From Patescibacteria group bacterium (lineage in GTDB: Bacteria; Patescibacteriota; Patescibacteriia; Patescibacteriales; JAQTRU01), in assembly GCA_041645555.1 (NCBI GenBank), contig JBAZPX010000001.1, positions 204,731 through 268,730 of the forward strand: a stretch of DNA of 64,000 bases, read 5' to 3'. The notes beneath the pieces were generated by a model. That model was given only the letters and a program-made list of their open reading frames with translations. It had not been told where the DNA came from and made no database searches. Below, one piece after another: positions 4,781-64,000 of this stretch. The position numbers and the translations under genes are program-made. The first letter of the stretch is position 1, and every line of letters starts with the position of its first letter.

Positions 4781-6205
4781 ATGGATTTATCCAAGATAAA
4801 AAACATATACATGATCGGCATCAAAGGCGTGGGCATGACTATGCTCGCGCAGTTTTTGGCTGGCAAGGGTTTTTCCGTAAGCGGATCTGATATAAAGGAA
4901 AAATTTATGACGGATGAAGTTTTAAAGGATGCCGGCATAAAAGTGATAGAAGGGTTTTCTAAAGATAATCTTCCGAATGACGTTGATTTAATTATTTATT
5001 CCACGGCCTATAACGGAGAAAACAATGCGGAAGTGGCTAAGGCGCTAGCTGGTAAAACCAAAATCTTAACTTATGCCGAGGCCTTAGCGGAATTTTTTAA
5101 TTCCCATTTTGGCATAGCGGTAATCGGCTCGCACGGTAAAACTACGACCACGGCCTGGCTTGGATTCGTGCTCTCGCAAGCTGGCCTAGAGCCGAACGTT
5201 TTAGTCGGTTCCCGCGTTCCCCAATTTAACGGCTCCAGTCTGGTTGGTAAATCAGATTATTTGGTAGCGGAAATTGATGAATACCAGAATAAGTTTAAAT
5301 ATTTCCAGCCCCGGGCCACAATTCTTACCAATATTGATTATGACCATCCGGATTTTTTCCCGACCAAGCAGGATTATGAAGACGCTTTTATAAAATTTAT
5401 TGAAAAGCTTCCGGCTCGCGGTTTCCTGGTCGCTAATTTTGACGACCCTGCCATACGCAAAACCGTTAATGTCAATTGCCGGGCTAAAGTAATAAGTTAT
5501 GCCTTAAACGAAGTGGCCGATTATGTCGCTTATGATATTAAACAGGGAGCGGGAAAGCAATTTTTTAAAGTTAAGTTCGGTCTGGATGAAGAGGAAGCGG
5601 AAGGAGAAAGAGACGACCTATTGGGAGATTTTTCTATTCAGCTTTCCGGAGCGCATAACGTTTCTAACGCTTTGGCCGTGATTGCGGCAGGGATTGAGCT
5701 GGACGTTCCTTTAAATCTTATCAGGACTTATCTTGAAGAGTTTTCCGGCACGGCCCGGCGCATGCAGGTTTTAGGAGAGTACCGGGGAGCGACGATTATT
5801 GACGATTACGCCCATCACCCCACGGAAATAAAAGCGACCTTGGCCGGCGCCAGGCAGATTTATCCGAATAAAAAAATAATTGTGGTTTTCCATCCTCACA
5901 CTTTTACCCGCACCAAAGCTTTGCTTGATGATTTTTCCAAAAGTTTCGGACAGGCGGATGAAGTGATAGTTTTGGATATTTACGGGTCGGCGAGGGAGAA
6001 ACAAGGCGGGGTTAGCAGTAAAGATGTAGTGGAGAAAATTGGAATCAGGAATCAGGAATCAGGAATTAAGCAAAAATTAAACTATATTTCAACTCTTAGC
6101 GAATGTGAGAAGTATTTGCGGGAGAAGGCGGAGAGGGGAGACGTTATAATTTTAATGGGAGCCGGAGACGTTTTCCGCATCGGGGAGAACTTGGTAAAGG
6201 GCTAA
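4781..6205 (+). CDS. murC: UDP-N-acetylmuramate--L-alanine ligase MurC
   Basis: Mur ligase motifs are present (GIKGVGMT, GSHGKTTTT, DDYAHHPTE). I place the start at the ATG at 4781 (MDLSKIKNIYMIGIKG) rather than the GTG at 4751. Confidence 0.9.
   Translation: MDLSKIKNIYMIGIKGVGMTMLAQFLAGKGFSVSGSDIKEKFMTDEVLKDAGIKVIEGFSKDNLPNDVDLIIYSTAYNGENNAEVAKALAGKTKILTYAEALAEFFNSHFGIAVIGSHGKTTTTAWLGFVLSQAGLEPNVLVGSRVPQFNGSSLVGKSDYLVAEIDEYQNKFKYFQPRATILTNIDYDHPDFFPTKQDYEDAFIKFIEKLPARGFLVANFDDPAIRKTVNVNCRAKVISYALNEVADYVAYDIKQGAGKQFFKVKFGLDEEEAEGERDDLLGDFSIQLSGAHNVSNALAVIAAGIELDVPLNLIRTYLEEFSGTARRMQVLGEYRGATIIDDYAHHPTEIKATLAGARQIYPNKKIIVVFHPHTFTRTKALLDDFSKSFGQADEVIVLDIYGSAREKQGGVSSKDVVEKIGIRNQESGIKQKLNYISTLSECEKYLREKAERGDVIILMGAGDVFRIGENLVKG
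6041..6067 (+). repeat. Heptanucleotide tandem repeat (ggaatca x3 + ggaatt) inside murC
   Basis: Encodes GIRNQESGI, the same unit and frame as murG 1824-1857. Confidence 0.9.
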
Positions 6206-21249: not shown

Positions 21250-22674
21250 ATGCCAAAAATAAAAGGAAAAATAGAGAAATCTTCCCTTTCAAAAAAAAAC
21301 AATAAAGAAGCCGCTCCTTTAGTTGTTGAAGAGGAGGCCAAGTTTCCCCTAAAAATAGGCCAAGTTTACCAACCGTCTTCTTCTGTGGATAATGCCAGTC
21401 CTGGCCCTAAAAAGCAGAATAAAAATCCTAAAAAATTAGAATCAAGCCCGCTTCGGCCGCTTAAGCGACCCCGCTTAGGGGGAGAGGCTGGCTCAGCCTC
21501 GTTAAGTCTAAGCGAGCCAGCCGAAAAAGAGGCAAAAAAAAATATGAATCCTCCAAAAATAAATTTATACCGCAAAATAGCCCTGAGTTTTATTGTTTTA
21601 ACGGTTATTTTACTGGGTGTTATTTTTTATTTTTCTTTCGTTAAGTTAAATATCGTTTTGATACCGGCGCAGGAAAGGTTAAGCGACAGTTTATCCATAG
21701 ATATTTATGGGAGCGGCAGCGAGCCGGCCGTATTAGAGAAATCTCTGGCTGGCATTGTGGAGCAAACAAGCATTGAGGAGAAAAATACCTATTCCGCCAG
21801 CGGATCAGAAAAGATCGGCGAAGAAGTGACAGGCAAGGTTACGGTTATAAATAATTACAATAAAAGTCAGCCGTTGGTGGCGACCACCAGATTGCTGTCT
21901 TCGGATAATAAATTGTTCCGGATAAAAAATACAATCAATGTGCCGGCAGGAGGATCGCAGGAAGTAGAAATATATGCTGATCTAGTCAATGAAGATATGG
22001 CTATCGGCCCGACAAAATTTACGATTCCTGGCTTATGGGCCGGGCTGCAGGATAAAATTTATGCTGAAAGCAAGGAAAAATTTGTTTATGGGCAGCAGGC
22101 AAAAAAATATATTCAGCAGTCAGATATTGACCAGGCGACTAAGGATTTAAAAAGAAGCCTATTGGAAAAAGCAAAGAACGAAATAGGCGAGAACTATAAA
22201 GGTTATAATGAAGTTATTTATAGTGTTGATGAAAATACGATCAGCACCGAGGTCGGCGGGAAAGTGGGCGAAGAGAAGGATAAATTTGATGTAAGCATGA
22301 AGGCGATGGTAACGATTGTCGCTTTTTCGGGCGACGAGGCGGGGAAAATGGGAAAGGAAAAATTAGCGGAAGTGGTGCCGGATAATAAGGAACTCATAGA
22401 ATTTAAGCCGGAAGAGGCAAGTTACAGTTTAAACAGTTTTGATGTGGCGGCGGGCCGGGCAACGGTTAACGCTACTTTTGAAGGCAAGATGAGCTTAAAA
22501 AGCGAAGCGGATATTATTGACCGGCAGAAAATCGTTAATTTAACGCGCGAGCAACTAGAAGATTATTTAAGCGGCTTTAAGGAAATTGCCGGTTATGAAA
22601 TTAATTTCTTCCCGTCTTTTATAGACAAGGTGCCGAATTTAGCAGACAGGATAAATATAGAAGTTAGGGAGTAA
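21250..22674 (+). CDS. Membrane-anchored protein of unknown function (disordered N-terminus, one TM helix, large extracytoplasmic domain)
   Basis: AGGAGG RBS before the ATG and a TM segment IALSFIVLTVILLGVIFYFSF. I recognise no family. Confidence 0.75.
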   Translation: MPKIKGKIEKSSLSKKNNKEAAPLVVEEEAKFPLKIGQVYQPSSSVDNASPGPKKQNKNPKKLESSPLRPLKRPRLGGEAGSASLSLSEPAEKEAKKNMNPPKINLYRKIALSFIVLTVILLGVIFYFSFVKLNIVLIPAQERLSDSLSIDIYGSGSEPAVLEKSLAGIVEQTSIEEKNTYSASGSEKIGEEVTGKVTVINNYNKSQPLVATTRLLSSDNKLFRIKNTINVPAGGSQEVEIYADLVNEDMAIGPTKFTIPGLWAGLQDKIYAESKEKFVYGQQAKKYIQQSDIDQATKDLKRSLLEKAKNEIGENYKGYNEVIYSVDENTISTEVGGKVGEEKDKFDVSMKAMVTIVAFSGDEAGKMGKEKLAEVVPDNKELIEFKPEEASYSLNSFDVAAGRATVNATFEGKMSLKSEADIIDRQKIVNLTREQLEDYLSGFKEIAGYEINFFPSFIDKVPNLADRINIEVRE

Positions 22675-23856: not shown

Positions 23857-25641
23857 ATGGATAAAGAAAAAAATTTAGAGATTATTCGGCATAGCTTAAG
23901 CCATGTTATGGCCGCGGCGGTTAAGGAGTTTTGGCCAAATGTGAAGTTCGCTATCGGGCCGGCGTTAGAAAACGGCTTTTATTATGATTTTGATTTTGGC
24001 AAAGAAAAAGTAAGCGAGGAAGATTTAGCCAAGATTGAGAAAAAAATGGAGGAGATTATAAAAAAAGACCTGAAATTTGAAAGGTCAGAAGTAAAAATTA
24101 ATGAAGCGATTGCCAGAGAAAAAAAATCCGAGCAGATTTATAAGGGAGAACTGATAAAAGATTTAAAAAAAGACCCAGCCTTCGCTAAAGCCTCGGCGGG
24201 CAAGGGGGGGGAAGTTAGTTATTATAAACTTGGCGAATTTGAAGATTTATGCCGCGGACCGCACGTGGCTTCAAGCGGAAAGCTGAATAATGCCGGCTTT
24301 AAACTGACTAAACTGGCCGGAGCCTATTGGCGGGGAGATGAAAAAAACGCTATGCTTACCCGGATTTACGCCGTGGCCTTCGCGAATAAAAAAGAGCTGG
24401 GAGATTATTTAAAGATGATGGAAGAGGCAGAAAAAAGAGACCATCGTAAATTAGGGAAAGAATTGGATTTGTTTGTGTTTTCCGATTTAGTCGGACCAGG
24501 TTTACCGTTATACACTTTTAAAGGCACGATTATTCGCCGTGAAATTATTAATTTTTCTAATGAGCTCCAGCGTGAAATTGGCTACCAGGAAGTGCATACG
24601 CCGAACATGAACAAAGCGGAACTTTTTAAAGTATCAGGCCATTATGATAAATACAAAGAAGATATGTTCCGAGTTGTTTCCAATTATACTGATGAAGAAT
24701 ATTTTCTCAAGCCCATGAATTGCCCGCAACACACGCAGATTTACGCCTCAGAAATGAGAAGCTATCGCGATTTGCCTATTAGGATAGCGGATTTTGCGAA
24801 TCTTTATCGTGACGAAAAGCCCGGCGAGCTTTCCGGCTTGATTCGCCTGCGCTCATTCTGCCAGGACGATGGCCATTGTTTTTGCCGGCCGGATCAGATT
24901 AAAAAAGAATTTCAATCTGTCCTTGGCGCCATTAAAAAAGCCTTGGCTGTTTACAAAATGGATTATCATATTCGTCTATCCCTCTGGGACCCAAGCCAAC
25001 CGGATAAATATTTAGGCGAACCGGCAGTGTGGGAAAAATCTCAAGCGATATTAAAAGATATTTTGGAAGAAAATAAATTAACTTATATCACCAGTATCGG
25101 CGAGGCGGCCATTTATGGCCCAAAAATGGACATTCTAACCAAGGATTCGCTCGGTCGTGAATGGCAAATATCCACTATTCAGCTTGATTTCATTATGCCG
25201 CAAAGATTCGGCTTGTCTTATATTGACGAGAATGGCAAGCAAAAGACGCCGGTTATGATCCATCGGGCGATTGTGGGCTCGCCAGAAAGATTTTTAGGCA
25301 TTTTAATCGAGCACTATGCCGGCGCGTTTCCGGTCTGGCTTTCGCCCGTTCAGGTAAAGATTATTTCTGTCGGAGAAGGCCATATTGAATTTTGCCAAAA
25401 GTTGGCCGGGGATTTTAGAGAAGAAAAAATAAGGGTAGAAGTGGATGGAGACAATGAAACCGTCGGCAATAAAATCAGGAAAGCGGTTGGCGAAAAAACA
25501 CCTTATGTTTTAGTAGTCGGGGACAAAGAAATGGAGTCTAAAAAATTAGCGGTGCGCGACCGGGGGTCTAGAGAAACCAGAGAAATAGAGAAAGATAAAT
25601 TTATTGCTGAAGTGAAAGAAAAGATTAAAAACAGGAAATAA
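23857..25641 (+). CDS. thrS: Threonine--tRNA ligase (no N-terminal TGS domain)
   Basis: Editing-domain RHSLSHVMAAAV, class II core motifs (DHRKLGKELDLF, FRDEKPGELSGLIRLRSF, HRAIVGSPERF) and the anticodon-binding domain. Confidence 0.95.
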   Translation: MDKEKNLEIIRHSLSHVMAAAVKEFWPNVKFAIGPALENGFYYDFDFGKEKVSEEDLAKIEKKMEEIIKKDLKFERSEVKINEAIAREKKSEQIYKGELIKDLKKDPAFAKASAGKGGEVSYYKLGEFEDLCRGPHVASSGKLNNAGFKLTKLAGAYWRGDEKNAMLTRIYAVAFANKKELGDYLKMMEEAEKRDHRKLGKELDLFVFSDLVGPGLPLYTFKGTIIRREIINFSNELQREIGYQEVHTPNMNKAELFKVSGHYDKYKEDMFRVVSNYTDEEYFLKPMNCPQHTQIYASEMRSYRDLPIRIADFANLYRDEKPGELSGLIRLRSFCQDDGHCFCRPDQIKKEFQSVLGAIKKALAVYKMDYHIRLSLWDPSQPDKYLGEPAVWEKSQAILKDILEENKLTYITSIGEAAIYGPKMDILTKDSLGREWQISTIQLDFIMPQRFGLSYIDENGKQKTPVMIHRAIVGSPERFLGILIEHYAGAFPVWLSPVQVKIISVGEGHIEFCQKLAGDFREEKIRVEVDGDNETVGNKIRKAVGEKTPYVLVVGDKEMESKKLAVRDRGSRETREIEKDKFIAEVKEKIKNRK

Positions 25642-32685: not shown

Positions 32686-32865
32686 CAGATTGCCTCGCTT
32701 TCGGTTAAAGTAAAGTTTGTGCAAGGTACGTTGACTGCTTTATAGGTGAATTGAATTATTAAGTTCTAATGAGCGTTAAAACAAAAAAGCCGACCCTCCT
32801 TGGTTAGGCTTATTTCTAGTTTTTTCTTATTTCACTTTAACAGACTTCTTATAAAAAATCAACTA

Positions 32866-32962
32866 CCTCACCCTCCACCTCGGCGAGCCTTCGGCCCGCT
32901 TCGCCAAAGCTCCAGCGAGGCGAGCGAGACGGGCCGCCCCTCTCCTAAGTAGGAGAGGGGAT
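32866..32962. repeat. GC-rich palindromic element, family 3 (tacctcaccc...; hairpin cccctctcctaagtaggagagggg)
   Basis: Shares the tacctcaccc end and the ctctcctaRktaggagagggg hairpin with the in-frame element in mnmA (58810-58887). Confidence 0.65.
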
Positions 32963-34757: not shown

Positions 34758-34841
34758 TGCCCAGGGAGAGAATCGAACTCTCATGGACTTGCGTCCACAC
34801 GATTTTGAGTCGTGCGCGTCTACCAGTTCCGCCACCAGGGC
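34758..34841 (-). tRNA. tRNA-Leu (anticodon CAA), class II with long variable arm; CCA not encoded
   Basis: Minus strand reads GCCCTGGTGGCGGAACTGGTAGACGCGCACGACTCAAAATCGTGTGGACGCAAGTCCATGAGAGTTCGATTCTCTCCCTGGGCA. T-arm GAGAG-TTCGATT-CTCTC, anticodon loop CTCAAAA, one U-U mismatch in the acceptor stem. Confidence 0.85.
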
Positions 34842-36250: not shown

Positions 36251-36262
36251 AATGTAGTATTT

Positions 36263-36340
36263 GGGATTTTTAGGATTTTTACGATTCTTGAGATTCTTAA
36301 GATCCTAATAATCCCAAGAATCCTAAGAATCACAATAATC
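36263..36340. repeat. Intergenic period-9 word palindrome (gattcttRa / aatcctaag)
   Basis: gggatttttaggatttttacgattcttgagattcttaagatcc faces aatcccaagaatcctaagaatcacaataatc. Confidence 0.85.
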
Positions 36341-37332: not shown

Positions 37333-37418
37333 TGGGATCTTTAGGATTCTTACGATTTTTGGGATTCTTGGGATTTTTTAAAAACTCTATCTTAAGAATC
37401 CTAAGAATCTCAAGAATC
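37333..37418. repeat. Intergenic period-9 word palindrome (same word family as 36263-36340)
   Basis: gggatctttaggattcttacgatttttgggattcttgggatt faces cttaagaatcctaagaatctcaagaatcc. Confidence 0.85.
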
Positions 37419-37476
37419 CATAGGGAGAAAAGCGTTAGGTGTTATACGTTATGCGAAGGTATGTTATAATATAGGC

Positions 37477-43848: not shown

Positions 43849-44250
43849 GTCATTGCGAGTCCCGAAGCCTCGGGACGAAGCAATCTCTGGTTAAATAGAA
43901 AAACATGTTAAACGAACGATACTATTTTGTTTATATAAACACCAATAAAACCCACAACGTTTTTTATACCGGAGTGACCAATAATTTATTAAATAGGAAT
44001 TACCAGCATAAGAGCAAAGAGAATAAATTAAATTTCACAGCCAAATATAAGGTAAATAAATTAGTCTATTGCGAGACGTTTTCCGATATCCGTGATGCCA
44101 TTGCCAGAGAAAAGCAAATCAAAGGTGGTTCCAGAAAAGATAAAATCAACCTTATAATTAAATTAAACCCGGAGTGGAAAGATTTAAGCTTGGATATGTA
44201 AAACCAGAGATTGCTTCGTCTCCCGCCTCGGCGGGATCCTCGCAATGACA
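43849..44250 (+). mobile_element. IR-bounded element carrying a GIY-YIG nuclease gene
   Basis: The left arm tgtcattgcgag...cgaagcaatctctggtt is the reverse complement of the right arm aaccagagattgcttcg...ctcgcaatgaca. The ORF stop abuts the right arm. Confidence 0.75.
43905..44201 (+). CDS. GIY-YIG nuclease family protein (98 aa)
   Basis: YFVYINTNKTHNVFYTGVTNNLLNRNYQHK matches the GIY-(X)n-YIG pattern, with REKQIKGGSRKDK at the C-terminus. Confidence 0.85.
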   Translation: MLNERYYFVYINTNKTHNVFYTGVTNNLLNRNYQHKSKENKLNFTAKYKVNKLVYCETFSDIRDAIAREKQIKGGSRKDKINLIIKLNPEWKDLSLDM

Positions 44251-44260
44251 AGGGAAAATA

Positions 44261-45277
44261 ATGGATAAGCAAACCCTGAAAACTAAAATTAAAGCCCAAG
44301 CCAAGAAAATCGCTTGGCGGGCAATCACCACGGTTATTTTAACTCTAACCGCGGTTATTACGGTTTGGGCTTATGCCGCGTTTGTTGAACCCTTAGTCGG
44401 ACCGAATTCCTCTGACCAGGATTTTGCCCAGAATATTTTAGGCAATAACGACGCTAACAATGATTTTAGTTCTTCTAACGTCGCTTCTAACGCTGACGGC
44501 AGTATTATCGAAAGAGAAGAATATTTGCAAACCCAAATCGGCACTTATGCTGACGCCACGACTACGCCGAGTGCGGCAAGTTCGGTGTTCGCGGCGTTGA
44601 AGGGATTGGATTCTTCGTATCAGGAATACACTAGCGGAAGTGGGAACTGGACGGCTCCGGCTGGTGTCTATTTGATTAATGTGCTCCTTGTCGCCGGAGG
44701 CGGAGGTGGCGGTTCTACAGTGGCAAATTCAGGAGCAAGTGGCGGAGGCGGAGGTGGTGAAACTTTTTCTATGATGAATTATAAAGTTGTGCCCGGAACT
44801 GCTTATGCATATGCAGTAGGCGCTGGAGGTTCCGGAGCAACAGGAAACGACGCGGATGGTTCAAATGGCTCAACCTCCACCTTCATGGGTTATTCTGTTG
44901 CGGCTGGTTATGGTGGGAAGAGGGGAACGGTTATGACCGCCGGAAATGGTGGCGGGGTGGGTGGCGGAACAGCCGGCGGTACTCCAGGAAGTGGTACGAC
45001 GATGGGAGGAGCACTTTTTTCGAGGACTGGCGGAGGAGCAGGGAGCAATGGCAATAGCGCCTCCGCCGCTGGAAGCAGTATCGGTTCTGGCGGTGGACTA
45101 ACGGCTCCGGGCGGCGCAAGCTATCGTTCATCTCCGGATGGTCCTTATACGAATGGGGTTGGAATAAATGCACCTGCCAATAGTGGTGCCGGCGGCAGCG
45201 GAGCAACTAATTCGAACGCAGGCGGGATTTTGCCTGGAGGAAATGGTGGTTCTGGTTATATTTTAATAACTTGGTGA
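44261..45277 (+). CDS. Membrane-anchored surface protein: conserved N-terminal module plus glycine-rich C-terminal domain
   Basis: The N-terminus is homologous to the 16374 CDS. The C-terminus has GGGGGGS.../GGNGGSGYILITW glycine-rich repeats. Confidence 0.8.
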   Translation: MDKQTLKTKIKAQAKKIAWRAITTVILTLTAVITVWAYAAFVEPLVGPNSSDQDFAQNILGNNDANNDFSSSNVASNADGSIIEREEYLQTQIGTYADATTTPSAASSVFAALKGLDSSYQEYTSGSGNWTAPAGVYLINVLLVAGGGGGGSTVANSGASGGGGGGETFSMMNYKVVPGTAYAYAVGAGGSGATGNDADGSNGSTSTFMGYSVAAGYGGKRGTVMTAGNGGGVGGGTAGGTPGSGTTMGGALFSRTGGGAGSNGNSASAAGSSIGSGGGLTAPGGASYRSSPDGPYTNGVGINAPANSGAGGSGATNSNAGGILPGGNGGSGYILITW

Positions 45278-45313: not shown

Positions 45314-45514
45314 TGTCATTGCGAGGAAGGAGTTCCACAGAATTGCGGGACGACTGACGAAGCAATCTAAGGTTAGCTGGAAGTAACAAGAAAATTAAAA
45401 AACATCATTTTATCCGAATAAATACTAATGATAGACATTTAACAGAATCAGACTTTATACCTTTAAACCAGAGATTGCTTCGGCTCCCGCCTCGGCGGGA
45501 TCCTCGCAATGACA
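45314..45514 (+). mobile_element. ORF-less derivative of the GIY-YIG element
   Basis: The right arm at 45466-45514 differs at 1 of 49 nt from 44202-44250. The left arm starts tgtcattgcgag...gaagcaatctaaggtt. The interior is only ~90 nt. Confidence 0.7.
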
Positions 45515-45557
45515 GGAAGTATTATTTTTGAGATTTACATTTTAAATTTTATATTTT

Positions 45558-50980: not shown

Positions 50981-51450
50981 ATAATATCAGGGTAAGCGAA
51001 TAGTCGATCGCTTGAGAAAACTTGAGCGGTAGGAAAGTCCGGACTCCCGCCTACGCTAAAGCTTCGGCGGGCAAGTCGTAAAGATTTTGCCTGCTAAGTG
51101 ATTTAGTTAGGTGCCATGGCAGCGGGTAACGCCCGCCAGAAGTAATTCTAGGGAAAGTGCCACAGAGACTATACTAATCAATGCGAAGCATTGGTCAAAC
51201 GTGAAAAGTTCTAGGGTGTGTAAATTGATCTCGGATATCCGTTTAATTTACGCTACTTGGATCGTCCTCTGGCAACAGAGTGACGTGGTAAACCCTGCCT
51301 GAAGCAAGAGCAAACCCCGCTCAGAATGTTAAAGCATTTGAGCGGGATGAAAAGTGGCTCGCTTGATCCCGAGAGCGATTTCGGGACTAGATAGATGACT
51401 ATTTAAAACAAAATCCGGCTTACAGCTTGCCCTGATATTAGTGGAATTTA
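50981..51450 (+). ncRNA. rnpB: RNase P RNA (bacterial type A-like), enlarged
   Basis: GGAAAGTCCGGAC (P4 5' strand), GGTGCC...GGGTAACGCCC, AGTGCCACAGAGAC, and AGATAGATGACTAT...ACAAAATCCGGCTTAC (P4 3' strand). P1 pairs aaattccaataatatcagggtaagc with gcttgccctgatattagtggaattt. P2 pairs aatagtc with gactatt. The ends are approximate. Confidence 0.85.
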
Positions 51451-57904: not shown

Positions 57905-58024
57905 GTGATAGATTTTAGTAATTAGGTTTTAGATATTAGTCAATAATAAAAGGCGTTTTAATTATAAAGAACGTCTTTTATTATTGGAGTTGATGAAAGA
58001 GATAAATACGGATATAATTCAATT

Positions 58025-59278
58025 ATGGCTGAAACAAAAAACAAAAAAATTATTATGGCGATGTCCCCGCGCAAATCCCTTCGGGATTCTGCGGGGCAAG
58101 CTGGCGGCAATAAAAAAAAGCACATAATTATAGCGATGTCGGGCGGAGTTGATTCTTCGGTGGCTGCAAAATTATTAAAGGACCAGGGGCATGACCTTTT
58201 GGGAATCTTTTTGCATTTCTGGAAGGATGAAAATAATCCCCCTAACCCCCTTTATCAAGGGGGTGCGGCAGAGAATAAATGCTGTTCGCTTGAAGCTTTA
58301 ATGGACGCCAGACGGGTTTGCTCCAATATCGGCATACCTTTCTATACCCTGAATTTCAGCAGTATTTTTAAAAAAGAGGTGGTCGATGACTTTCTTGATG
58401 AATATAAAAAGGGCAATACTCCTAATCCCTGTATCCGTTGCAACAAATTGGTTAAGCTGGGTTTGCTTGTCGAGCGAGCGAAAAAATTAGGGTTTGACTA
58501 TGTGGCCAGCGGCCACTATGTGAAAAACCAAAAACCAAAAACCAAAAACCAAAAATATAAATTATATAGAGCGAAAGATAAGAACAAAGACCAATCATAT
58601 TTTTTATACACTCTGACGCAAGAGCAATTGGAACATCTGCTTTTCCCTTTGGGGAATTATATAAAAGAGGGGGTGAGAAAAATAGCCGGAGCTTCCGGTC
58701 TGCCGGTGGCAGCGAAAAAAGAAAGCCAGGAAATTTGTTTTATTTCCGGCAAAAGCCACAATGATTTTTTAAAAAGATATCTTAAATTAAAACCGGGGCC
58801 AATAAAACTATTACCTCACCCTGGCCCTCTCCTAATTAGGAGAGGGGAGGAGCTCCGCCAGCCGGCGGAGCGAAGGGGTGAGGTAATTGGTAAGCACCAG
58901 GGTCTGCCTCTTTATACCATCGGCCAAAGGAAGGGAGTGGAGATCGGAGGTGTCGGCCCGTTTTATGTAGCTAAATGCGATTATAAAAGCAATACTTTGT
59001 ATGTGGTGAAGGACGGCGATGACCCGGCTCTGTATGATAGTAAACTAATAGCCGGCAATGTCAACTGGATAGCCGGGCAAGAGCCAAAAATACCTCTTAC
59101 CTGCGAAGCGGTAATCAGATATAGGCACAAACCCACGAAGTGTAAAGTTACAAAGTCAAAAGTTAAAAGTAGTTATATAGTAAAATTTAAAAAGCCGCAG
59201 AGGGCGATTACGCCTGGGCAAAGCGTAGTTTTTTATAAGAAAGATGAGGTTTTGGGCGGCGGGGTTATTAGTCCTTAG
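58025..59278 (+). CDS. mnmA: tRNA 2-thiouridine(34) synthase MnmA, carrying several in-frame insertions
   Basis: PP-loop AMSGGVDSS, NPCIRCN, SGHYV, KDQSYFLY, QEICF, HQGLPLYTIGQRKG and C-terminal ITPGQSVVFY all align with E. coli MnmA. Confidence 0.9.
   Translation: MAETKNKKIIMAMSPRKSLRDSAGQAGGNKKKHIIIAMSGGVDSSVAAKLLKDQGHDLLGIFLHFWKDENNPPNPLYQGGAAENKCCSLEALMDARRVCSNIGIPFYTLNFSSIFKKEVVDDFLDEYKKGNTPNPCIRCNKLVKLGLLVERAKKLGFDYVASGHYVKNQKPKTKNQKYKLYRAKDKNKDQSYFLYTLTQEQLEHLLFPLGNYIKEGVRKIAGASGLPVAAKKESQEICFISGKSHNDFLKRYLKLKPGPIKLLPHPGPLLIRRGEELRQPAERRGEVIGKHQGLPLYTIGQRKGVEIGGVGPFYVAKCDYKSNTLYVVKDGDDPALYDSKLIAGNVNWIAGQEPKIPLTCEAVIRYRHKPTKCKVTKSKVKSSYIVKFKKPQRAITPGQSVVFYKKDEVLGGGVISP
58810..58887 (+). 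repeat. 78-nt element bounded by perfect 12-nt inverted repeats, in frame inside mnmA
   Basis: attacctcaccc ... gggtgaggtaat, with internal hairpin gccctctcctaattaggagagggg. It replaces ~5 residues of the E. coli alignment with 26 residues. Confidence 0.75.
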
Positions 59279-59344
59279 GTGTTAGCTTTTAGCTTCTAGA
59301 GCGGTATTTTGTATCTCTATTGTTTTATGGTATAATATTATTAT

Positions 59345-59442
59345 TAAGATTCTTAAGACTCTTGGGATATTTATGATTTTTGAGAAACTCGGAACTTTGA
59401 AATCCTAAGAATCTTAAGAATCGCGATAATCCTAAAAATCTC
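59345..59442. repeat. Period-9 word palindrome between an extended -10 element (59327-59335) and the first Cys-rich paralog
   Basis: aagattcttaagactcttgggat ... aaatcctaagaatcttaagaatcgcgataatcc. TGGTATAAT lies just upstream, so the palindrome is probably in the 5' UTR. Confidence 0.8.
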
Positions 59443-59457
59443 AAATAAAAATTCCCC

Positions 59458-61008
59458 ATGCTTCCAAAAAAATTCTCTCTACTTCTAATCTTCTCTATTA
59501 TCCTAACCCTAGGCCTATCCATATCCCTGGGTTCTCTTTTGGCGGCCTGGACGGCCCCGGCTTCTAGTCCTCCGGAAGGTAATATTGCCGCCCCGATTAA
59601 TACGGGCGCGACTTTACAAGCAAAACAAGTCGGTTTGTGGCTTAACTATTTACCATTGGATGAGGGTGGTAGCGCCAACGGTTTACTTGTCCAATATGGC
59701 AATGTCGGCATTGGCACAACCACCCCCCAAGCTAAATTAGAAGTGGTAGGCAATATTATTGCTGATGCCCCAACGGCCAGTAATGAAGTAGCGACAAAAG
59801 GATATGTGGACGCATCGGGAGGCAGCGCCGGTCTTGATCAATATTATGAATCCTGGTGCGCGGCTCACCAAGGCCAGAAATGCGCGCGAAGCGGAACTAT
59901 GGATTATAAATGTATGGGTGATTTCTGCACTAAAGCCGGTATTTCCAATGATATGGATGAAGATGGAGTTACGGGAGCGACTGATTGCAATGACAGTCCT
60001 GGGAGTGGCTCGACCATCGGCGCGGCGGCTGACGGCACTTGCGATGGTGACGCGGATGGCAAAATTGACGTATCCGCCTATCTCACTACTCCCAAGCCGG
60101 CCGAGGCTGATTGTTACGACAGTAATCCGGCCAAATATTCTTGTTTGAGCAATGGCACGACTTGCAGCAGCGGAATTTATTGCGCTTCCACTTATTGCGT
60201 AGATGGATATTGTTGCGAGAGCACCTGCACCGGCCAGACTTGTCAGACTTGCGGAATCTATTCCAGCGCCGGAGCTGGTAAGTGCGGTTATGTAAATAAT
60301 TCTTTGCAAGATCCGCATAATAACTGCAGCCAAGGCTCAACGGCCAGTGATGGGTGCAGTTCTAATAATTGCAGCGGTACTGGCTATTCTTGCGGCACGC
60401 CGCAAACTTCAGGATATGGCGGTTGCCCAACATGTGGATATTGTAATGGCGCGAGCATTGCTTGCACGGCTTATATTAATGGTTTTTATGACTCCAGGTT
60501 GCAGGGATGCAAAACCTGTAATGGAACCATAGGAGGTTTTAATACTATGCCCGATACTAATTGGGGCGCTAACCAATATAACTGTGCTGGTTCCTCTTCC
60601 CGTTGCGTTTCCGGAAATTGCCGGGCTTGTGACGGTTATCTTTATAGCGATGGTTGCAATGGTTGTGCGGGCCAGGGCGGACAAGCCTGTTGGCGCGCTA
60701 TAATGCAAGGATCATGCGATGATAGTTGTAATAACTATGGCGGCTGTATCGCGGGAGGATGGAATGATGATGCTAGCTGTTCAGTTTGCAAGCACATAGA
60801 ACCCGCTGCTACAGAATGTATAACTCATCAGTATGATTTTTTCCCTGCCAATTATTATTATAATTTTAGTTACGGTTCCAGCACTAAATACTGCTATCGA
60901 AGGGATACTGCCCAGACTCCCAATATTAATTGTAGTCTTTCCGTAAGCCCTTATTGTTCCGGAGCGGGGTGCAGTGGATACATAAGGTTATGTGTGTGTA
61001 AGTGGTAA
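59458..61008 (+). CDS. Membrane-anchored cysteine-rich surface protein, paralog 1
   Basis: Signal anchor LLLIFSIILTLGLSISLGSLLAAW, then the conserved block TAPASSPPEGNIAAPIN...GNVGIGTTTPQAKLEVVGN, then a Cys-rich C-terminus. Confidence 0.85.
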   Translation: MLPKKFSLLLIFSIILTLGLSISLGSLLAAWTAPASSPPEGNIAAPINTGATLQAKQVGLWLNYLPLDEGGSANGLLVQYGNVGIGTTTPQAKLEVVGNIIADAPTASNEVATKGYVDASGGSAGLDQYYESWCAAHQGQKCARSGTMDYKCMGDFCTKAGISNDMDEDGVTGATDCNDSPGSGSTIGAAADGTCDGDADGKIDVSAYLTTPKPAEADCYDSNPAKYSCLSNGTTCSSGIYCASTYCVDGYCCESTCTGQTCQTCGIYSSAGAGKCGYVNNSLQDPHNNCSQGSTASDGCSSNNCSGTGYSCGTPQTSGYGGCPTCGYCNGASIACTAYINGFYDSRLQGCKTCNGTIGGFNTMPDTNWGANQYNCAGSSSRCVSGNCRACDGYLYSDGCNGCAGQGGQACWRAIMQGSCDDSCNNYGGCIAGGWNDDASCSVCKHIEPAATECITHQYDFFPANYYYNFSYGSSTKYCYRRDTAQTPNINCSLSVSPYCSGAGCSGYIRLCVCKW

Positions 61009-61032: not shown

Positions 61033-62619
61033 ATGCTTCCAAAAAAATTCTCTCTACTTCTAATATTCTCCATTATTCTCACTCTGGGATTATCCATATC
61101 TCTAGGTTCTCTTCTAGCGGCCTGGACCGCTCCGGCTTCTAGTCCTCCGGAAGGTAATATTGCCGCTCCGATAAACACGGGTGCGACTTTACAAGCGAAA
61201 CAAGTCGGTTTATGGCTTAACTATTTACCATTAGATGAGGGTGGTAGCGCCAACGGTTTACTTGTCCAATATGGCAATGTCGGCATTGGCACAACCACCC
61301 CCCAAGCAAAATTAGAAGTAGTAGGCAATATTATTGCTGATGCTCCGACGGCCGGCAACCACTTAGCGACTAAGGCTTATGTGGATGCGGCCGGAGGCGC
61401 TGGAGGTGAATATGTGCAGGGAAATGCGGTTTATTTTACTTCTGGCGGTAATAATTATTATTGCTCCCAACGTTCCGTAAGTTCAAGCGGGGTGGTTACC
61501 ATAAGCAACGTAAACGAGGGGCAGCCTTGTGATATCAATAAGGTGTGTAATTCTGGGCGATGCTCATCTCTCGGTGAATTCGCTACGGCCTGCACTACCA
61601 GTTCCCAATGTTCTTCCGGTTATTGTGTGGATGGATATTGTTGCGATAGCGCTTGCAGCAGCGTTTGCCGGGCCTGTAATGTTTTTGGCAGTTCCGGCAT
61701 TTGTACCAGTATCCCGGTTGGCACAGATCCGGCTAGTGAATGTTCTTTGGTTACCTGTACTAATTATATATATGGCGGGACAAACCCTTCATGCTATAAA
61801 TATGCTAGTGCCAACTCTAACAATGGTATGTGCAACGGAGCTGGTGCTTGTTATACTTCATCGGCTGATTCCTGCACCGGTCAAGGGGGAGCGACTATAA
61901 CTTGCGGTAACACTGGCTGCTGGAAAGCCTGTGTGGCTGATGCCTTAGCGACTTCTTTTGATAATTATAGTGAAGTTTGCCATACCTCCGGTACTCAAAA
62001 TTGCACTAGCGGTCTTGTCTGCGATGCTACTGGCGCCTGTAAATCAGGGGCCGGAGCGGTTTGCACAGCTGATAGCCAGTGTGGTAGTGGCTATTTATGC
62101 GGTGTTGATGCCGATGGCGATAGATATTTAACTAGTGCCACAACCGGTACTTGTGTTTTGGGGACAGCCCATATTGATTGCTGCGACTCCGATTCCGGAG
62201 TACATCCGGGTACTGGGATTAGAAGCACTGCAAGTGCATGCGGTGGATGGGACTTAGATTGCAATGGATCAGTGCAAAAAGATTCTTCGTGTAAGACATG
62301 TACGTCTTGTTCCTTGTGTGGCACCTCTCGTTCGGCTTCATCTGTAGGACAATCCTGTGTGAGTTGCACGGGAGCATCTACTGTTTATGATGGGTGGTCT
62401 CATACTTGCGGCGTTTCAGCCAATTGCGGACAAACTTTCACTCAAAGGGGTTGCAGGCCCAAGGCCGTGAGTTGCCCCACTTGTTATAGTGATTGGCAAC
62501 CTTGGGGTTGTTATCTTCATGATGCAACCGGTTGTGATGTTTGGGGGCCAACCTTTGGAATTTATTTTTGGCAAAATGATTTATGCGATATTGGAGCTCA
62601 AACTTGCGGATGTAATTAG
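61033..62619 (+). CDS. Membrane-anchored cysteine-rich surface protein, paralog 2
   Basis: The first ~112 aa are identical to paralog 1. The Cys-rich C-terminus is different. Confidence 0.85.
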   Translation: MLPKKFSLLLIFSIILTLGLSISLGSLLAAWTAPASSPPEGNIAAPINTGATLQAKQVGLWLNYLPLDEGGSANGLLVQYGNVGIGTTTPQAKLEVVGNIIADAPTAGNHLATKAYVDAAGGAGGEYVQGNAVYFTSGGNNYYCSQRSVSSSGVVTISNVNEGQPCDINKVCNSGRCSSLGEFATACTTSSQCSSGYCVDGYCCDSACSSVCRACNVFGSSGICTSIPVGTDPASECSLVTCTNYIYGGTNPSCYKYASANSNNGMCNGAGACYTSSADSCTGQGGATITCGNTGCWKACVADALATSFDNYSEVCHTSGTQNCTSGLVCDATGACKSGAGAVCTADSQCGSGYLCGVDADGDRYLTSATTGTCVLGTAHIDCCDSDSGVHPGTGIRSTASACGGWDLDCNGSVQKDSSCKTCTSCSLCGTSRSASSVGQSCVSCTGASTVYDGWSHTCGVSANCGQTFTQRGCRPKAVSCPTCYSDWQPWGCYLHDATGCDVWGPTFGIYFWQNDLCDIGAQTCGCN

Positions 62620-62683: not shown

Positions 62684-64000
62684 ATGCTTCCAAAAAAATT
62701 CTCTCTACTTCTAATATTCTCCATTATCCTTACCCTAGGATTATCCATATCTCTAGGTTCTCTTCTAGCGGCCTGGACCGCTCCGGCTTCTACTCCTCCG
62801 GAAGGTAATATTGCCGCTCCGATTAACGCCGGCTATACTGCCCAAGCTAAAAAAGGCGGTTTAATCTTAAACACTGGCGAAGGCGGCGAAGCTATGCTTA
62901 ACGGCTTGATAGTTCAATTTGGCAATGTCGGCATTGGCACGACCAGCCCCCAAGCTAAATTAGAAGTAGTAGGCAATATTATTGCCGATGCTCCGACGGC
63001 CGGCAACCACTTAACTACCAAAGAATATGTTGATGCCATAGGCGGCGGTAGCTGTCTAGACCAATATCAGCATTCTTGGTGTACCGATCATCAAGGAGAA
63101 AAATGCGCTCGGAGCGGCACTATGGACTACAAATGCGTAGGCGATTTTTGCACTAAAGCCGGAATCTCCAATGATATGGACGGCGACGGGATAAGTGGCG
63201 CAACCGATTGTAATGATAATGACCCGACCATTGTCGCGGCCACTGACGGCACTTGCGACGGAGATGCGGACGGGAAAATTGACCAAACCGCCTATCTTGC
63301 TACCCCCAAACTAGCCGCGGCCGATTGTTATGACAGTAATCCCGCTAAATATTCTTGTTTAAGCAATGGTACAGTTTGCAGTAGTGGAATTTATTGCGCT
63401 TCCACTTATTGCGTAGATGGGTACTGTTGCAATAACGCTTGTACAGGAAGTACCTGCCAGACTTGCGGGATTTATTCAAGCAACGGAGTCGGCGCCTGCG
63501 GTTATATAAATAATTCTTCGCAAGATCCTGATAGCGAATGCAGTCAAGGTTCAGCCACTGGCGATGGCTGCCGTTCTAATTATTGTAGCGGCAATAGTTA
63601 TGCCTGCGGGATTCAAACCAGCGGAAATGGCGGATGCCCGGCTTGCCAGACATGCGCTGACTCCGATATTGCTTGCGAATATGAGACCGTCAGCACCGAT
63701 CCTGGTGATCGATGTCCGGCCATAACCTGTATGAATTATATTTATGGCTGGTCCGGAAATAGTTGTTTAAAATATTCTTCAAATACAGCCAACAACGGGT
63801 TATGCGACGGAGCTGGATCCTGTTATGGCGTAGCTAGTTCCTGTTCAGGCGCCGGGCTAATTTCTGCTTCTTGCGGGAACTCCCAATGCAATAAAGCCTG
63901 CGTCGCTAATTCCTTAGCCACTAGTTATGACACTGCGGCCGAAATATGTTATGTGAATAATGAGCCAGCTTCTTGCTCTACTGGTTATTCCTGCAGCCCA
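62684..64000 (+). CDS. Membrane-anchored cysteine-rich surface protein, paralog 3 (3' end outside window)
   Basis: Absent from the ORF track because no stop lies in the window. The ATG at 62684 is preceded by the same gtttattataaatattacataaaa leader as paralog 2. The frame is open to base 64000. Confidence 0.85.
   Translation, partial: MLPKKFSLLLIFSIILTLGLSISLGSLLAAWTAPASTPPEGNIAAPINAGYTAQAKKGGLILNTGEGGEAMLNGLIVQFGNVGIGTTSPQAKLEVVGNIIADAPTAGNHLTTKEYVDAIGGGSCLDQYQHSWCTDHQGEKCARSGTMDYKCVGDFCTKAGISNDMDGDGISGATDCNDNDPTIVAATDGTCDGDADGKIDQTAYLATPKLAAADCYDSNPAKYSCLSNGTVCSSGIYCASTYCVDGYCCNNACTGSTCQTCGIYSSNGVGACGYINNSSQDPDSECSQGSATGDGCRSNYCSGNSYACGIQTSGNGGCPACQTCADSDIACEYETVSTDPGDRCPAITCMNYIYGWSGNSCLKYSSNTANNGLCDGAGSCYGVASSCSGAGLISASCGNSQCNKACVANSLATSYDTAAEICYVNNEPASCSTGYSCSP

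Follow-up and report, generated by a model that had tools for sequence, protein, structure and literature searches.

In-frame hairpin and heptanucleotide inserts in the loops of mnmA from a Patescibacteria bacterium, and a duplicated, conserved module at its N-terminus

The gene mnmA, which encodes tRNA 2-thiouridine(34) synthase, was analysed in a 64,000-nt stretch of contig JBAZPX010000001.1 from a Patescibacteria group bacterium (assembly GCA_041645555.1), referred to here as the window and numbered from its first letter. The gene lies at 58025-59278 on the plus strand as an intact open reading frame (ORF) of 417 amino acids, and its loops contain two kinds of low-complexity DNA that are otherwise typical of intergenic spacers in these Patescibacteria genomes: short GC-rich hairpin modules that resemble repetitive extragenic palindromes (REPs) or terminators, and heptanucleotide microsatellites. 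On balance we consider it probable that these are repeat DNA of an intergenic type, filtered within mnmA by selection for reading frame and for loop position, and that the insert nearest the N-terminus (insert 1) is a separate, conserved and translated module. Hairpin modules and heptamers would have been copied from an intergenic pool, or made locally through template switching and slippage, and would have arrived without target-site duplication; selection would then purge versions that were out of frame, contained stop codons or fell anywhere but in a permissive loop. Those that survived would be translated as flexible loops rich in Pro, Gly, Arg and Lys, leaving the PP-loop and the catalytic cysteines untouched. 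An earlier note on this DNA, made without database searches, had described four of these features relative to E. coli MnmA; all four lie at the positions described, inside the intact gene, and alignment with orthologs upheld their description as in-frame insertions.

The identity of the enzyme was clear at the levels of domain, motif and predicted fold. All three MnmA domains were matched in Pfam (PF03054, E 4.5e-77; PF20259, E 1.5e-16; PF20258, E 4.1e-22), the HUP/PP-loop, central PRC-barrel and C-terminal beta-barrel domains by which an MnmA is recognised are all present in the 417-aa ORF, the solved MnmA structures PDB 9hln and 2der were matched by sequence (E ~1e-75), and an identical NCBI protein, encoded on a 301-kb contig, carries the annotation MnmA from a Patescibacteria metagenome-assembled genome. 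Residues S39-S44 (the SGGVDS PP-loop), C136, C139 and C238 were unchanged across 102 aligned orthologs and line up with the E. coli motifs, the catalytic residues of which are D99/C102 and C199. The AlphaFold model of the window protein had a mean predicted local distance difference test (pLDDT) score of 88, with values >92 outside the inserts, 53-78 inside inserts 2 and 4 and <50 for residues 1-28, and a Foldseek search with this model returned the solved MnmA structures 2hma, 2det and 2deu as the best PDB matches (TM-score 0.90-0.92, normalised to the target). The predicted fold is that of a normal MnmA on which the inserts are modelled as low-confidence loops; the earlier note had expected them in surface loops.

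The 120 closest MnmA homologs (57-75% identical; those with a named source were all from Patescibacteria) were aligned with E. coli MnmA, and a smaller alignment covered 21 orthologs; the alignments revealed that insertion is concentrated at a small number of hot spots. Inserts of at least 4 aa were found in 48 of the 120 orthologs at site 2 (before the CC motif), in 62 at site 3 (after SGHY), in 58 at site 4 (after KPGPIK) and in at least 26 at site 5 (in the C-terminal barrel), while a sixth site was occupied in five. In the AlphaFold model, site 2 falls in the loop that links strand 2 to helix 2, and sites 3-5 lie between paired beta-strands. Measured against orthologs, the window inserts are smaller than the units drawn in the earlier note: the net gain was ~20 aa for insert 4, ~8 aa for insert 2 and only ~3 aa for insert 3. 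Occupancy, which ranged from 10 to 50% of orthologs when the N-terminal site is included, was patchy at every site on a neighbour-joining tree (343 core columns), and the content, length, frame and orientation of the hot-spot inserts varied among orthologs, with MnmA lengths of 346 to 505 aa among the homologs listed. Ortholog DNA further revealed that composite inserts enlarge through the nesting of hairpin within hairpin and through change in heptamer arrays, yet every surviving version keeps the reading frame and is free of stop codons. That the frame is preserved had been noted before; no evidence emerged for the accompanying proposal that the process of insertion itself favours the frame, and selection suffices to account for the frames.

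In insert 2 (58234-58264, plus strand; z = -2.2) the hairpin ACCCCCTT-TATC-AAGGGGGT comes after a CCCCCT repeat, and the unit encodes NPPNPLYQGG; the hairpin proper (58245-58264) has an 8-bp stem. The earlier note had recognised this hairpin, but the unit is longer than it proposed (~58234-58264), because a copy of CCCCCT precedes the hairpin and the whole matches, in reverse orientation, a family of the form CCCCCTT..AAGGGGG-N3-4-GGGGGAT. In the ortholog locus L086 the forward form of this family, an element of ~30 nt (CCCCCTTTAATAAAGGGGG-nn-AGGGGGAT), occurs at both site 2 and site 4 of mnmA in two frames, read as PPLIKGDKGD at the former and APFNKGGEGDL at the latter. A tally of encoded peptides showed that members of the family are spread over sites 2, 4 and 5, where they are read in three frames and stand in either orientation. 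Insert 2 is terminator-like on the minus strand. Intragenic terminators on the sense strand were considered and rejected, no hairpin in mnmA being followed by a T-run on the plus strand.

Insert 4 (58810-58887, plus strand) is a Y-shaped 78-nt composite in which an outer 12-nt inverted repeat (58810-58821 and 58876-58887, matching at 12 of 12 positions) encloses two inner hairpins, A (58825-58846) and B (58852-58871), and the 86 nt around it (58806-58891) were predicted to fold as a three-way junction (-55.7 kcal/mol, z = -8.0). Its flanks (..aaact and ..tggta) are without the target-site duplication of a miniature inverted-repeat transposable element (MITE), and its right arm falls on host-type codons (G-E-V-I) that fit the G-x-x-[IV]-G pattern of insert-free orthologs. 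At site 4 of locus L081 the outer arms and hairpin A are as in the window, an extra hairpin stands inside the loop of A and hairpin B is missing, while the near-identical population allele L099 is without any insert there, an insert-free allele of the kind that had been suggested as a check. When 1.84 billion cluster representatives were searched with the 31-aa peptide of insert 4 in the window, none matched at E up to 0.001; because the whole peptide is unmatched, insert 4 is a local composite rather than a 78-nt unit that is mobile and dispersed, and related alleles show that it grew by nested additions of hairpins. The inverted repeat and the internal palindrome of the 78-nt element described earlier are real, but the host-type right arm and the nested growth speak against a dispersed unit. 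The intergenic relative proposed for it was also present, in partial form, at 32862-32960 (plus strand), where an 11-nt left end (TACCTCACCCT) and a 24-nt hairpin (CCCCTCTCCTAAGTAGGAGAGGGG) are parted by ~60 nt of further hairpins nested between the two. Among viral contigs, hairpin A of insert 4 had one match.

Insert 3 (58523-58555, plus strand) is the heptamer array that had been described, a 100% perfect (AAAAACC) x4.7 that encodes KNQKPKTKNQK in a beta-hairpin turn, and orthologs carry other heptamer arrays at this site, some with nested GC hairpins. A fifth feature, absent from the earlier note, is a degenerate AAAGTCA-like heptamer array (59146-59192, plus strand) that encodes KVTKSKVKSS in the site-5 hairpin of the C-terminal barrel; ortholog P0002 has a cleaner (AAAGTCA)n array at this site, P0003, P0004 and P0006 have (AAAACAC)n arrays that add 18-38 residues, and in L094 and L099 the site-5 heptamer array encloses GC hairpins that differ between the two alleles. 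All of the orthologous arrays, whatever their length, keep the frame, although they had been collected as intact proteins in the first place. When perfect arrays of at least three units were tallied over the window, six had a period of 7 and none a period of 6 or of 8-12, with none in shuffled sequence, and four of the six period-7 arrays lay within genes. Some of the window's arrays are inside cell-wall genes: a MurG-like gene (1111-2223) contains TCGGATG x2.7 (1206-1224), TCAGATT x5 (1631-1665) and GGAATCA x4.7 (1825-1857), the first two of which coincide with 5-residue gaps relative to a solved MurG (3s2u), and the GGAATCA unit recurs (x3.7, 6041-6066) in a second, neighbouring gene. The gene for threonyl-tRNA synthetase (ThrRS; 23857-25641) carries an 11-residue, GC-rich in-frame insert, AFAKASAGKGG (24172-24219), that is not found in S. 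aureus ThrRS (1nyq). The ThrRS peptide is similar to AKAS.GK-type inserts at sites 2, 3 and 5 of ortholog mnmA genes.

The abundance of hairpins in mnmA approached that of intergenic DNA. Perfect GC-rich hairpins numbered 16 in the window, against 0-7 in shuffled sequence, and three of them fell in the 1.25 kb of mnmA. Across 12 Patescibacteria loci, some of which had been picked for the presence of insert 1 in mnmA (the imperfect hairpin of insert 1 itself being outside the tally), their density was 0.91 per kb in mnmA, 0.13 in other coding sequence (CDS) and 1.24 in intergenic DNA (binomial p = 7e-7), so that mnmA is ~7-fold richer than neighbouring genes and close to the intergenic level. 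L081, L090, L094 and L099 are groundwater metagenome alleles of one mnmA, with 99-100% identity over the first ~700 nt and many synonymous differences in their 3' halves. They are mosaic alleles, which indicates that homologous recombination is frequent in the population.

Several points nevertheless weigh against repeat DNA of intergenic type, sifted by selection, as the full account of mnmA. That the inserts are translated is deduced from selection on frame and codons; the ~7-fold excess of hairpins over neighbouring genes lacks an explanation; and, were insert 1 merely tolerated, decay would be expected in copy 1 of its module (below), a segment that is outside the fold and disordered by prediction, yet copy 1 has not decayed. 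The hairpin units are not multi-copy in the 64-kb window, where insert 4 has one partial relative and inserts 1 and 2 have none, and no transposase, duplicated terminal repeat or other insertion signature was identified, although the window ORFs were not scanned for transposases.

A second explanation holds that nothing was inserted at all: the hairpins would have arisen by template-switch copying of neighbouring sequence in inverted form, and the arrays by slippage from A-rich codons. The left arm of insert 4 could then be an inverted copy of its host-type GEVI right arm, and the native codons aaa aaa ac(t) at site 3 could have seeded (AAAAAAC)n and (AAAAACC)n, many orthologs having arrays of the IKKTKKQKNK type there; that no target-site duplications were seen, and that the whole peptide of insert 4 is unique among the representatives searched, would also be expected. 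However, the left end of insert 4 (TACCTCACCCT) and hairpin A recur together in intergenic DNA 26 kb away, the ~30-nt element occupies two sites in L086 in different frames and is reversed in the window, and the hairpin of insert 1 is found at two intergenic places on another contig. Since such recurrence of modules in separate places means that copies moved, or were copied, at least sometimes, we regard a purely local origin as possible at most.

Insert 1 differs from the others and has three parts, all on the plus strand. Copy 1 (58037-58065), the upstream arm of a direct repeat, comprises a basic stretch and the codons of strand beta-1 (KNKKIIMAMS), a peptide kept in 12 lineages; it is followed by a hairpin (58065-58096) with a 7-bp outer stem, an internal loop, a 6-bp inner stem and a UUC triloop, which encodes (S)PRKSLRDSAG; and the remainder (58097-58140) comprises a tail (QAGG), an A-rich linker and copy 2 (KKKHIIIAMS), which abuts the PP-loop. 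The two repeat arms (58037-58065 and 58112-58140) are 29 nt long, 79% identical and spaced by 75 nt, and their last 14 nt match at 13 positions, so the hairpin and flanking repeat described earlier are present. The hairpin is imperfect, its 13-bp stem being interrupted, and the 89-nt region gave z = -1.0. Its triloop varies among UUC, UAC, UGC and CGC; a UUCG tetraloop or a mimic of the tRNA-Glu anticodon loop was rejected since the register gives a 3-nt loop of which the middle base varies. In the AlphaFold model beta-1 (residues 33-38) is formed by copy 2, and residues 1-28 are unstructured.

The element was present in 12 of the 120 closest orthologs, and its DNA was compared in 12 lineages, ten of which had been located through protein similarity alone; as L087-L099 were retrieved with a pattern that itself imposes the 23-nt core, the argument from the stem uses these ten. 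The ATGs of copies 1 and 2 were spaced by 72, 75, 78, 96 or 171 nt in the 12 lineages, in every case a multiple of 3, and the gap was stop-free and in frame in all of them, including loci found by DNA pattern rather than as ORFs. Over the six-codon core, the two copies differed at 37 codons synonymously and at only 7 non-synonymously, and copy 1 tracks the beta-1 of its own lineage (IIVAMS, VIVAMS, IAVAMS or VVVAMS). The excess of synonymous differences points to an old duplication of which both copies are held by selection at the level of the peptide. The repeat had been read earlier as a target-site duplication; copies that have diverged at most synonymous positions while encoding the same peptide do not bear this out, and the arrangement is better described as an old, selected coding duplication than by the MITE model.

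Paired third-codon positions of the hairpin were almost invariant (one change in 90, from nine positions in ten lineages), whereas unpaired third positions and the GCN and GGN codons of the tail varied freely while the amino acids of the tail stayed the same. This contrast shows that constraint acts on the stem at the level of nucleic acid but on the tail at that of the peptide. Purifying selection thus acts on the peptide of both copies, on the tail peptide and on the nucleotides of the hairpin, which argues for a translated N-terminal extension. The few substitutions seen within the stem were non-compensatory (L083, L086, L087 and L102). A search with the hairpin core against 241 million metagenome records returned 13 matches, 11 of them at exactly this site in mnmA; these 11 include two genes whose MnmAs share no more than 52-54% identity with the window protein, which speaks against a recent insertion. 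The module is old and almost specific to mnmA, and a function of its own is very probable. An insert placed right behind AMS would part beta-1 from the PP-loop, and only a version bearing duplicated beta-1 codons would then be viable, which accounts for the duplication but not for the continued conservation of copy 1.

The two remaining matches both came from another contig (Ga0209542_10000665), where they belong to clusters of hairpins that closely follow genes. Here (L093, 325-460; L095, 2470-2600) three to four different GC-rich hairpins are stacked directly after stop codons, and the two clusters share a longer composite repeat (CTCATTCTCGCTCGTCCGTCAGCTGACGGACTCGCTCCGAGG...) that includes the insert 1 hairpin.

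Several other readings were tried and set aside. An out-of-frame insert hidden upstream in P0060 and P0083, which are annotated to start at MSGGVDSS, was rejected because the upstream DNA is in frame to a normal start and the annotated starts are mis-called. Adenine-specific mutagenesis between the copies, as by a diversity-generating retroelement, was rejected since the differences are not limited to adenines, and duplication of a 29-nt repeat as in CRISPR adaptation since the would-be spacer is the same sequence in all lineages. An internal start before copy 2 was likewise discarded: inspection by eye found a GTG after AGAAGG only in L081 and L082, and neither in the window nor in the other lineages.

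A promoter-like site that matches the consensus (TTGATG, 17 nt, TATAAT; 57990-58018, plus strand) ends 6 nt before the ATG of mnmA, and the TATAAT-N6-ATG layout is also found upstream of mnmA in L081, L082 and L083; because the putative TATAAT box stands so close to the ATG, it suggests that the mnmA mRNA of this clade is leaderless or nearly so. A scan of genome contigs returned mostly distant mnmA loci from outside Patescibacteria. The -10-like box directly ahead of the start bears on a third explanation, in which the inserts, or insert 1 if no other, would be more than passengers and serve as mRNA structure that governs how stable or how well translated a leaderless transcript is, as new loops or as an N-terminal regulatory arm; in one form of it, copy 1 vies with copy 2 for the beta-1 slot as a switch. 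Nucleotide conservation of the insert 1 hairpin in excess of coding need, conservation of the tail and of both beta-1 copies as amino acids, the co-variation of copy 1 with the beta-1 of its lineage and the near-restriction of the module to mnmA are all consistent with this explanation. Inserts 2-5, however, are free in sequence, length, frame, orientation and presence even among near-identical alleles, which fits tolerated passengers; residues 1-28 are without structure in the AlphaFold model; changes in the insert 1 stem are not compensatory; and neither the gathering thresholds nor a cut-off of E 5 yielded an Rfam family for any insert. We therefore offer a functional role of this breadth as a tentative proposal, held with low confidence.

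A narrower idea casts the insert 1 module as an mnmA-specific device for recoding or switching, acting either through ribosome hopping, with two isoforms as the outcome, or through competition between the strands of copy 1 and copy 2; we judge this unlikely. Were hopping, or an 'alternate-frame folding' switch that turns the PP-loop off, to be true, it would explain why copy 1 retains a lineage-specific peptide despite near-saturated synonymous sites. Taken by itself, programmed bypassing from the ATG of copy 1 to that of copy 2 would yield a short, ortholog-like MnmA beside, or in place of, the read-through form. Matched ATGs flank the gap in all 12 lineages, with a stable stem-loop that begins at the next codon and is followed by an A-rich 3' part, six of seven gaps inspected by eye have no internal ATG, and bypassing would account for copy 1 keeping the beta-1 peptide and co-varying with copy 2. 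The general layout is that of the phage T4 gene 60 cassette and of the mitochondrial 'byp' elements (bioRxiv 10.1101/2022.08.31.505936), with which insert 1 shares a short hairpin insert, an invariant motif in an enzyme of essential type, a fixed codon position, matched take-off and landing codons and an AU-rich 3' part. In gene 60, however, the gap is untranslatable, with a stop or rare codon after take-off and often a shift of frame, whereas the gap here is open, in frame and stop-free in 12 of 12 lineages, with a tail under selection at the peptide level. Gene 60 has a UUCG tetraloop where the loop here is a UNC triloop, copy 2 is no less conserved than copy 1, no consistent Shine-Dalgarno (SD)-like motif was seen by eye before the landing codon, and insert 1 shows no evident bypass signal peptide, mini-SD or nearby mobile endonuclease gene. 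Bypassing thus strikes us as very improbable. An assembly chimera or a pseudogene gathering junk, conceivable for a metagenome-assembled source in which repeats can mislead assemblers, can practically be dismissed, given that 3,254 nt around mnmA show zero differences from a second public assembly record (although reads may be shared), that the ORF is intact with invariant catalytic motifs and a confident fold prediction, and that the same sites are occupied by inserts in dozens of orthologs obtained independently from other samples.

Among described repeat classes, the closest counterpart of the sifted repeat DNA proposed for mnmA would be the Rickettsia palindromic elements (RPEs; Ogata et al. 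2000 Science, 2002 Genome Res), summarised in a review of MITEs as ten families of ~100-150 bp, each with a conserved peptide and with tens of copies per genome (PMC10969869). RPEs and the hairpin inserts of mnmA alike are in-frame, translated palindromic repeat DNA, compatible with the protein fold, also found between genes, and hosted by a small genome. As to dispersal within one genome, the 64 kb of the window gave the one partial relative of insert 4, and in relatives the L086 element lies at two sites of one gene and the insert 1 hairpin at two intergenic places of one contig. RPEs occur in unrelated housekeeping genes whereas the mnmA units are concentrated at hot spots of one gene, and the latter are GC-rich within a genome of ~41% GC, nested, highly variable and 20-80 nt long. 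The inserts of the window (20-78 nt) thus fall short of RPE size, and only insert 1 has a conserved peptide. By analogy, the best-supported interpretation is that inserts 2-5 would follow the logic of RPEs.

REPs, their mosaic arrangements (bacterial interspersed mosaic elements, BIMEs) and terminator-like repeats such as SPRITE are further repeat classes covered by PMC10969869. The units resemble REPs and SPRITE as short, GC-rich, imperfect hairpins that cluster just downstream of genes (L093 and L095) and are without target-site duplication. REPs are extragenic by definition, whereas the mnmA units lie within CDS and in frame; their relatives in L093 and L095 and at 32862-32960 in the window are extragenic, as REPs are. 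The outer inverted repeat of insert 4 (12 of 12 positions) may or may not correspond to the terminal inverted repeats of MITEs, as its right arm lies on the host-type GEVI codons, which fit a pattern kept by insert-free orthologs. Palindromic amphipathic repeat coding elements (PARCELs) are described as palindromic repeat coding sequences in genes that have spread horizontally among diverse microbes; they are reported to form an intragenic tandem-repeat pattern in repeat proteins that confer surface phenotypes, whereas mnmA has single or nested hairpins in the loops of a cytoplasmic enzyme (PMC2996958). For the heptamers, multicopy arrays of four to five units are known within and between genes of Geobacter metallireducens (PMC2700814). 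Both sets contain perfect arrays of four to five heptamers, at times several per gene, in which the slip of one unit would shift the frame, but the Geobacter arrays have one GC-rich consensus and are proposed regulatory sites, while the units of the window differ from one another (AAAAACC, TCAGATT, GGAATCA and others). Insert 3 also resembles a simple-sequence contingency locus, being a perfect tandem array within a CDS with a unit length that is not a multiple of 3, but the window arrays gave no sign of on/off length switching.

Other features of the window were noted in passing. A GC-rich segment with a 7-bp hairpin (21443-21501) may be another in-frame hairpin insert; it belongs to the gene at 21250-22674, in the part that codes for the low-complexity N-terminus of a 474-aa protein (SSPLRPLKRPRLGGEAGSASLS). 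Three tandem paralogs follow mnmA (59458-61008, 61033-62619 and 62684-64000); their N-termini are nearly identical (MLPKKFSLLLIFSIILTLGLSISLGSLLAAWTAPAS...), the first is very rich in Cys, and they look like a family of secreted or surface proteins. An intergenic repeat (GCTTCG..CTCCCGCCTCGGCGGGATCCTCGCAATGAC) occurs twice, at 44212-44249 and 45468-45516, flanking the gene at 44249-45277, which a small gene (43899-44201) adjoins. Spacers at 36260-36340, 37336-37419 and 59340-59440 contain arrays of 9-nt period in which TTAGGATTC and its complement, ATCCTAAGA, form inverted blocks, one of these arrays lying directly downstream of mnmA. The sole Rfam matches in the window were a class A RNase P RNA (50988-51438, 174.8 bits) and a tRNA gene on the minus strand (34758-34841).

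To our knowledge, the textbook examples of in-frame 'selfish' palindromes in housekeeping genes come almost only from Rickettsia, and targeted full-text literature searches, which are weak evidence of absence, found no description of such inserts in Patescibacteria. Insert 1 adds a puzzle of its own, a duplicated core beta-strand combined with a nucleotide-conserved hairpin inside an open reading frame. If the reading favoured here is correct, a comparable and more dynamic process would be at work in Patescibacteria (the candidate phyla radiation, CPR), a vast uncultured radiation with tiny genomes, with hot spots common to half of the orthologs of one enzyme, hairpins that accumulate through nesting, and heptanucleotide arrays within cell-wall and tRNA genes. 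This would bear on how loops are gained by the proteins of reduced genomes and on the annotation and length variation of CPR proteins, and it raises the question of whether intergenic hairpins may serve as a source of new coding sequence.

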